Below are positions 5,520 through 5,600 of a stretch of 7,923 nt of DNA, piece after piece. The stretch is from a virus (lineage: Monodnaviria > Loebvirae > Hofneiviricota > Faserviricetes > Tubulavirales > Inoviridae). Position numbers and translations under genes: made by a program. The stretch covers positions 1 through 7,923 of the IMG/VR virus record IMGVR_UViG_2651869724_000001, one strand, 5' to 3'. How positions within the stretch are numbered: position 1 is the stretch's first letter; each line of letters opens with the position of its first letter. A model generated the notes under the pieces. It was not told the DNA's origin and did not search any database. It worked only from the letters and a program-made list of their open reading frames with translations.

Positions 5520-5600
5520 TTTACCGCATGCGCGCATCATAATCACATTTAATGTGTGTTGTAAATACGCATGCGCTATGCGGGTGTAAAAAAAATGGAA
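5520..5600. promoter_or_regulatory. Divergent promoter/operator region between the phage operon and the plus-strand regulator
   Basis: Palindromes atgcgcgcat (5528-5537) and cgcatgcg (5568-5575), repeated about 40 bp apart, and imperfect palindrome cacatttaatgtg (5544-5556). Minus-strand -35/-10 candidates TTTACA (5565-5560), 18-nt spacer, TATGAT (5541-5536). Plus-strand extended -10 candidate TGgAATAAT (5596-5604). Confidence 0.3.

Follow-up and report, generated by a model that had tools for sequence, protein, structure and literature searches.

What keeps the genes of a filamentous prophage silent is the question raised by a short stretch of DNA in the inovirus record IMGVR_UViG_2651869724_000001, which we analyzed over its whole length of 7,923 nucleotides (hereafter, the window). 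All phage genes of the window are carried by the minus strand, except for one plus-strand open reading frame (ORF) of 70 amino acids (aa), the presumed regulator. A gap of 137 bp separates this gene from a minus-strand ORF of 65 aa, the Rep_trans replication initiator (Rep), and the structural operon. A sequence-only reading of the window had described the gap as a divergent control region, a description which the gene arrangement bears out. Two copies of the palindrome CGCATGCG bracket a predicted leftward promoter, P_L, in the gap, and judging from sequence comparison, they most likely represent the binding sites of the neighboring regulator, a repressor resembling RstR of the Vibrio phage CTXphi. 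Accordingly, we read the gap as an immunity and control region, the counterpart of ig-2, the sequence that separates rstR and rstA of CTXphi. Regulator dimers would bind two operators, O1 and O2, in the gap and silence P_L; we estimate the probability of this reading at roughly three in four.

Repeated palindromes and the candidate leftward promoter

The repeats lie where the sequence-only reading had noticed palindromes recurring about 40 bp apart. The exact 9-nt direct repeat CGCATGCGC, that is, CGCATGCG followed by C, occupies positions 5525-5533 and 5568-5576, with a start-to-start distance of 43 bp. Its 8-nt core, CGCATGCG, has both its copies in the gap, and no other palindrome of this length is present twice anywhere in the 7.9-kb window. 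A perfect 10-nt palindrome, ATGCGCGCAT (5528-5537), occurs once and overlaps the first CGCATGCG repeat, and a middle palindrome, CACATTtAATGTG (CACATT-T-AATGTG, 6-1-6; 5545-5557), is located between both repeats, in the promoter spacer. Among 20,000 dinucleotide-preserving shuffles of the 137-nt intergenic region, 0.57% contained a perfect 8-mer palindrome occurring twice; the shares were 3% for at least four 8-mer palindrome positions, 6% for a 9-nt direct repeat, and 28% for a 10-nt palindrome, the latter being hence unremarkable by itself. The repeated CGCATGCG palindrome is thus unlikely to be a product of chance, whereas the single 10-mer and the middle palindrome, each taken alone, are not remarkable. 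Far stronger evidence than these shuffle statistics is provided by conservation across genera (see below).

A consensus scan of the gap returned one good sigma-70 match, TTTACA-18-TATGAT on the minus strand (10 of 12 positions). This candidate P_L sits between the CGCATGCG repeats, which flank or overlap its -35 and -10 hexamers, as the sequence-only reading had suggested; O2 lies 2 bp upstream of the -35, and the predicted transcription start, near 5529, would fall inside O1. The position of the promoter is kept in relatives: in the loci of Xenorhabdus, Photorhabdus, and the environmental CTXphi (CTXphi-env), TTTACA-18-TATnAT is found at the same position and is the only sigma-70 match. We propose that P_L drives the 65-aa ORF, Rep, and the structural operon, with the Rep_trans initiator as the main target of the control region.

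In the opposite direction, a candidate promoter of the regulator, P_R, can be placed at an extended -10 element preceded by an A8 tract (5588-5595). A2 and T6 of its hexamer are invariant in all 11 aligned gaps, and TGn precedes the hexamer in 6 of them. The consensus scan did not report P_R, as no -35 is present; the corresponding -35 region would adjoin O2. We also rejected TTTACC (5520-5525) as the -35 of a rightward promoter since, on reading of the alignment, none of the relatives has an acceptable -10 located 16-18 nt downstream, and GTGAGA-16-TATATT (9 of 12 positions in the consensus scan) was retained as a weak alternative rightward promoter only. The TATTTAC element before O1 is kept in enterobacterial loci, with CGCATATTG in its place in the Vibrio loci, and yields no usable rightward promoter. 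Readings of the AT-rich parts as CRP-, Fur-, or TyrR-like sites were dropped on informal inspection by eye, given the wrong order or spacing of the half-sites.

Conservation of the sites and their linkage to the regulator

A protein search retrieved 38 homologues of the regulator, from Escherichia albertii, Salmonella, Gilliamella, Providencia, Xenorhabdus, Arsenophonus, and Photorhabdus. For footprinting, we used a set of 13 loci with regulators 60-99% identical, which belong to E. coli, Xenorhabdus, Arsenophonus, Gilliamella, Photorhabdus, Salmonella, and the Vibrio phages CTXphi and VAI2; the upstream DNA of the 12 relatives was collected through a contig scan (3 loci) and exact-protein look-ups, and the gaps were aligned or anchored. 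TGTAAATA is invariant in all 13 loci. The longer TGTAAATACGCAT, which takes in the adjoining CGCAT, matches in 11 loci (L022 is intact only to CGCAT), and the full 15-bp block TGTAAATACGCATGC, comprising the P_L -35 and the O2 core, matches in 10. The O1 core, (C/T)ATGC...CAT, is invariant or nearly so in 11-13 related loci, and a distance of exactly 43 bp between the (C/T)ATGC cores of both operators is found in 11 of the 13. Out of the eight positions of CGCATGCG, an average of 6.1 are matched in the first box of O1, 4.5 in its second box (8 bp further), and 7.2 in the first box of O2, the background being 1.5; across relatives, another peak, of 4.5 of 8, is given by a box that the window lacks, located in the spacer beside the -35. 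CTXphi-env (CGCATGCG and TGCATGCG) and VAI2 (CGCATACA and CGCATGCA) clearly show tandem 8-bp boxes. Overall, in no fewer than seven genera the sites are conserved alongside the regulator within otherwise diverging DNA: the 18-nt promoter spacer is kept in length but not in sequence, and the flanks vary as well.

The last observation bears on the middle palindrome. The sequence-only reading had mentioned the sequence between the repeats in its description of the candidate operators, but as the spacer sequence is not conserved, we exclude the palindrome cacatttaatgtg from the control element, consider it probably nonfunctional, and rejected it as an operator. L003, an E. coli variant of 85% identity, and all other genera are devoid of it, and the gap of E24377A differs by only three substitutions, all of which fall into the right arm of this palindrome and break it.

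As an alternative, the repeats might simply be promoter sequence plus chance, that is, a strong -35/-10 pair in its context with incidental palindromes. The frequencies of the 10-nt palindrome and the 9-nt direct repeat in the shuffles are compatible with this explanation, TGTAAA is the -35 hexamer itself, and promoter geometry partly fixes the 43-bp spacing. However, the rarity of a twice-occurring 8-mer palindrome in the same shuffles speaks against it, and so does the fact that, in seven or more genera, conservation extends for nine bases past the -35 (TA in 13 of 13 loci, CGCAT in 11 of 13, CGCATGC in 10 of 13), which is not a property of sigma-70 promoters. Furthermore, heteroimmune alleles retain a promoter but alter the repeats (see below). 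We therefore consider this explanation to be very improbable.

The alignments also bear on the possibility that the CGCATGCG copies pair with each other into a long hairpin in the packaged single strand, with the middle palindrome as an inner hairpin; this structure would act as a minus-strand origin, in packaging, or as a substrate for recombination, the way hairpins act in Ff and CTXphi. Promoter-like hairpins serve as minus-strand origins in the Ff filamentous phages, and the minus strand of 5503-5639 indeed folds with an O1-O2 stem and an inner hairpin at -20.8 kcal/mol (z = -2.81), with 1 out of 200 shuffles folding as well. However, the low folding energy follows from the repeat itself, because any repeated palindrome self-pairs. 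In 11 relatives, 65.6% of the hairpin pairs can form, versus 64.6% after shuffling, and the covariation score is 0.112 versus 0.099, so that compensatory change was not established. About half of the sequences have lost the outer pairs of the O1-O2 stem and show no compensating change, and the inner hairpin, its palindrome already destroyed in E24377A, is 50% paired, with no excess over shuffles. A search of the window against Rfam found no family, and GC-rich hairpins at ~5925-5960, to the right of the regulator, appear better suited to an origin or packaging function. The covariation test thus led us to reject the hairpin and origin interpretation, which we hold to be very improbable.

Given that binding of the regulator to the conserved blocks is deduced from sequence comparison, another factor might bind them instead, be it a host factor, the product of the 65-aa ORF, or Rep, for which the blocks would contain the nick site or origin. 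In Rep_trans phages, the plus-strand origin is located in an intergenic region, and TGTAAATA and TATTTAC resemble what we take to be half-sites of some host regulators. Examination of the genomic neighborhoods argues to the contrary. The module is found beside Rep_trans in the window and in L012, L013, and L018-L020, but also beside a Phage_GPA-type "replication endonuclease" in L003 and L017 and beside a Phage_CRI/G2P protein in L009 (Gilliamella). It thus accompanies the regulator rather than the replication gene across three unrelated replication-protein families, which argues against a nick site or an origin. Homologues of the 65-aa ORF precede Rep_trans in L013, L018, and L020, whereas the loci with the other Rep types (L003, L009, L017) are devoid of it, which argues against the 65-aa protein as the binding partner. 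With regard to a host factor, the same motif is found in such distant hosts as Vibrio, Gilliamella, and E. coli, with the N-terminal strand of the regulator invariant. Moreover, in AST217, which represents the same host species and prophage backbone, the motif is replaced exactly together with the regulator allele, something that a host-factor site would not require. Collectively, these observations make a different binding factor improbable, and we retain the regulator as the likely ligand of O1 and O2.

The comparison with AST217 delineates an exchangeable cassette. The two prophages occupy the same site and are identical up to position 5487 of the window and again from ~5815, but are unrelated in between; the regulator of AST217 is 36% identical to that of the window, although it belongs to the same family, phrog_2503, and its gap contains different repeats, CCTCATG/CATGAGG. 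The 65-aa ORF, which overlaps the start of Rep, has its first five codons inside the cassette. Other alleles likewise come with repeats of their own: GTTAAC-based palindromes 52 bp apart in L004, GTGCATGCAC and CGCATGCAT in L020, and, in the Vibrio cyclitrophicus phage L026, CATGTAT cores for which the distance is once more 43 bp. From allele to allele, the residues at the positions of T11/R13/N15 of the regulator change (S/N/P, A/A/T, T/A/V), while those at the positions of V12 and I14 stay hydrophobic. This pattern is consistent, if indirectly, with that expected of a DNA-reading beta-strand in a ribbon-helix-helix (RHH) dimer.

In L004 (2275-2741) and L020 (2140-2710), two phrog_2503 regulator genes are arranged in tandem. 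Repeated palindromes of its own accompany the first gene; the second gene, closely homologous to that of the window regulator, is without O1 and O2 in L004 and has a degenerate O2 in L020, and may be an orphan immunity gene directed against a second phage type. Phage If1 (L023, U02303), a classical non-integrating phage of E. coli, contains in its "major intergenic region" (1183-1374) an unannotated 63-aa ORF (MATPKRTTMAIVAERKLKLERLAIDASHTAGR...) which is closely similar to the first regulator of L020 and 46% identical to the window regulator; just upstream is a transposase-like ORF that we read as IS200-like.

The RstR-like regulator and the proposed switch

The sequence-only reading had counted 71 residues in the regulator, a length which is obtained from a TTG start at 5637; the RefSeq annotation starts at the ATG at 5640 and gives 70 residues. 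Both this protein and the 65-aa ORF are annotated as "hypothetical protein" in RefSeq and belong to PHROGs of "unknown function". The regulator matches phrog_2503 (E=1.5e-27), and so do the alleles of L002, L004, L020, L026, VAI2, and CTXphi-env. In an alignment of 30 homologues, the residues R7, D9, T10, T11, and R13 form an invariant N-terminal block. A profile search of 1.8 billion representative sequences produced 80 family matches, from which an alignment of 76 sequences was built. The monomer model based on this alignment (pLDDT 92.7) has an extended segment at residues 1-15, followed by helices at 16-33 and 39-69, that is, the N-terminal strand and two helices characteristic of RHH proteins, and its best structural matches are omega, CopG-family, MazE, and CdbA proteins. 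The regulator is thus predicted to have an RHH fold. Like the RHH repressors MetJ, Arc and Mnt of P22, CopG, and omega, it has a predicted strand-helix-helix order, with an N-terminal strand in which variable outward-facing residues alternate with hydrophobic inward-facing ones. The proposed operators of the window and its relatives consist of tandem boxes of ~8 bp, and MetJ reads tandem 8-bp met boxes. Unlike in these repressors, helix A of the window regulator is longer and helix B (39-69) is very long, and no significant match was obtained in Pfam or PDB. In the PHROGs database, phrog_2503 is a family without functional annotation, and its description contains neither the operator assignment nor the fold proposed here.

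The closest characterized counterpart of the arrangement is the immunity system of CTXphi. When sequenced phages were searched with tblastn, the regulator was 67.9% identical, with 80% of the query aligned, to rstR of the CTXphi sequences GQ466611, GQ466608, and GU942563 and of the pre-CTX sequence KR063268, and 69.6% identical to an RstR-like protein of the Vibrio anguillarum phages VAI1/VAI2. The product in GQ466611 is annotated as "environmental RstR", and this homologue is carried by CTXphi strain IB1617 and by pre-CTX 17449. In both systems, a small repressor gene is divergent from a rolling-circle initiator gene (rstA, Rep_trans), with operators, putative ones in the window, in a short gap that also contains the rep promoter, and the prophage is integrated at dif, often in tandem. 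Furthermore, ig-2 of CTXphi-env contains the same O1/O2 motifs (ATGCGCGCAT, TGTAAATACGCATGCGTGCATGCG, and TGTAAATACGCATGCG) and the same promoter toward rstA. There are, however, differences. The well-studied alleles (ET, classical, 232, ZJ, ZHJ) are genes of 333-354 bp that encode helix-turn-helix proteins, in contrast to the 70-aa window regulator with its predicted RHH fold, and the ET and classical RstR alleles, which are not homologous to it, were never among the matches in any of our searches. This points to two unrelated folds among the proteins named RstR; our full-text literature search found no paper linking rstR with ribbon-helix-helix. The window prophage also differs in its host, E. 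coli, in encoding its own secretin, in the lack of a LexA box, and in that its module is found beside non-RstA replication proteins as well. P_rstA of CTXphi-ET is co-regulated by LexA, whereas neither CTG nor CAG, the half-sites of a LexA box (CTG-N10-CAG), occurs on the plus strand of 5503-5639; thus, induction must differ from that of CTXphi-ET.

RstR represses P_rstA allele-specifically, and in E. coli lux reporters, eight rstR alleles were each found in 2024 to repress only their own ig-2 promoter (PMC11509585). Repressor and gap are exchanged as one cassette among CTXphi alleles (PMC11509585), just as they are between the window and AST217. Three of the eight alleles are small, namely calc (180 bp), allele 5 (204 bp), and allele 6 (192 bp) (PMC11509585). 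The N-terminus encoded by the rstR6 primer (MKKKYTSLRV) matches a member of phrog_2503, so that the family probably includes at least one RstR verified by experiment. The rstR-calc primer had no match in the phage collection.

These comparisons suggest the following switch. Dimers of the RHH regulator would bind short CATGC-centered boxes at O1 and O2, probably two dimers per operator. O1 would cover the -10 and the start of P_L, and O2 would abut its -35; as 43 bp correspond to about four helical turns, the two operators would face the same side of the DNA. With both operators occupied, RNA polymerase would be excluded and P_L turned off, so that the 65-aa ORF, Rep_trans, and the structural genes would remain silent, the prophage quiescent, and the cell immune to phages with the same operators. 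Because O2 is located just upstream of the -35 position of P_R, autoregulation is to be expected. Specificity would probably reside in the N-terminal strand, with T11, R13, and N15 facing outward, together with the operator boxes, and regulator and operators would pass between phages as one cassette.

Several observations weigh against this reading. O1 is less conserved than O2, and its CGCATGCG palindrome is kept only in E. coli copies. The -35 hexamer lies within the conserved block, such that conservation and the 43-bp spacing could partly reflect promoter constraints. L004 and L020 carry a regulator homologue with missing or degenerate operators. Searches with the regulator and with 30 and 76 family members yielded no significant RHH match in Pfam, nor did the PDB profile search; the RHH matches are sub-threshold, with ParG at 0.025 and PutA_1st at 0.005 for isolated family members in Pfam, and the weak best matches in PDB are TTHA0139 (E=0.19) and ParG (0.47). 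The CTXphi allele closest to the regulator is outside the eight tested, the primers in Table S2 of that study giving no match (PMC11509585), and the literature searched contains no experiment on the regulator or the DNA of the gap. Finally, the gap has no LexA box through which the prophage could be induced.

The prophage and the reach of the module

The window represents a filamentous prophage of E. coli, an inovirus integrated at dif beside hipBA. Matching chromosomal segments are present in 195 of 5,426 complete E. coli genomes, with a median of two matching places per genome, and adjoin hipBA; in ten of the 195, positions 1 to ~6440 are covered at ≥99% identity. Megablast of the window against the phage collection gave no match. 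RefSeq annotates in these segments a secretin, encoded by the prophage itself, a Zot-domain protein, DUF2523, several hypothetical proteins, a "replication initiation factor domain" protein, and two small hypothetical proteins. In the Pfam search of the window, Zot (1-843), DUF2523, and Rep_trans were recovered, the match to inovirus coat B being weak. The features of the control region and its neighborhood are listed in Table 1.

Table 1. Coordinates of the control region, its proposed elements, and adjacent genes in the window
Feature	Position	Strand	Description
Exchangeable immunity cassette	5488-~5815		First five codons of the 65-aa ORF, whole gap, ~58 first regulator codons
Divergent gap (control region)	5503-5639		137 bp, between the 65-aa ORF (-) and the regulator (+)
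TATTTAC	5518-5524		Inverted copy of GTAAATA (5561-5567), which precedes O2
Putative operator O1	5525-5540		Tandem 8-bp boxes CGCATGCG and CGCATCAT; contains ATGCGCGCAT; overlaps the -10 and predicted start of P_L
-10 of P_L (predicted)	5536-5541	-	TATGAT; 18-nt spacer; TATnAT and spacer length conserved in relatives
-35 of P_L (predicted)	5560-5565	-	TTTACA; invariant in the alignment of relatives
Putative operator O2	5568-5583		Core CGCATGCG(C) at 5568-5576, then the weaker second box CTATGCGG
Candidate extended -10 of P_R	5596-5604	+	TGgAATAAT; inferred from sequence
Regulator	5640-5852	+	RstR-like, predicted ribbon-helix-helix; phrog_2503
65-aa ORF	5305-5502	-	First gene of the leftward operon; phrog_3104, "unknown function"
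Rep_trans initiator	4109-5305 (4109-5335 in the Pfam search)	-	RstA-like, rolling-circle replication; PF02486, E=1.9e-21

Several features of the prophage outside the control region were recorded as well. The 65-aa ORF is conserved before Rep_trans in Photorhabdus, Xenorhabdus, and the metagenomic locus L018, which has no gene call for it. The pIII-like ORF (1376-3025, minus strand) includes a long low-complexity run of (GTGS)n / (GT)n, and its length varies by strain, with 1650 nt in the window versus 1686 nt in AST217. Between the coat and pIII-like genes, a 56-aa ORF (3030-3200, minus strand) has a weak HTH_40 match (E=0.026) and no PHROG match, and may encode a second DNA-binding protein of the phage. 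The GC-rich hairpin to the right of the regulator (acccccgt...acggggg, 5925-5960) is a candidate origin or packaging structure. Further on, a 46-aa hydrophobic ORF (6194-6334) is followed, within 6372-6409, by a terminator-like hairpin, GGCCGCTGCG...CGCAGCGGCC, and then TTTT.

The dif-like site, TTCAACATAA-CGCGTGTCACA-TTATGTGCACC, is located at 6406-6437 (within 6406-6446), has an 11-nt central region, and differs from that of other strains by one mismatch in its XerC arm. Directly past this site, other E. coli genomes cease to be homologous and an insertion sequence begins (6440-7923), with transposase ORFs at 6485-7048 (HTH_32/HTH_28, and a weak match to the IS481 leucine zipper) and 7048-7923; the element parts the dif-proximal end of the prophage from the usual hipA-side flank. 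In the O166:H15 strain JNE21-003 (L001), the full prophage is preceded by another set of ssb-like ORF, Rep, 65-aa ORF, and regulator (1-4004 versus 8109-10439), with an identical control region, which makes a tandem or RS1-like array of the type known from CTXphi lysogens.

The layout inferred here is a known kind of phage immunity switch, and these particular sites seem not to have been described. In particular, the operator sequence, the fold assignment of the small RstR alleles, and the portability of the module across replication types and genera all appear to be new. A bolder set of statements can be built on these points, although we regard it as rather doubtful that all of them hold together. 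The small RstR alleles would constitute an RHH family, phrog_2503, with a fold unrelated to that of the classical helix-turn-helix RstR, and the TGTAAATACGCATGC block would be part of a portable immunity cassette grafted onto at least three inovirus replication modules. If the protein strand and the operator are as similar across genera as they appear, prophages of different genera would be cross-immune, and the orphan repressors of L004, L020, and possibly If1 would be stand-alone immunity genes. As the operator is fused with the -35, the repressor may also contact RNA polymerase and activate its own divergent promoter, which would make a lambda-like bistable switch out of a 70-residue protein.

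Filamentous prophages integrated at dif are common in diarrhoeagenic E. coli, and their control circuits are essentially unannotated. The present analysis assigns to one of them a candidate repressor, two operators, and one promoter, and ties these to the CTXphi immunity paradigm. The TGTAAATACGCATGC block may serve as a signature with which such modules can be found and typed in genomes, and the 70-aa protein together with the 137-bp fragment would offer a cheap and concrete E. coli system in which to study superinfection exclusion, heteroimmunity, and inovirus lysogeny.

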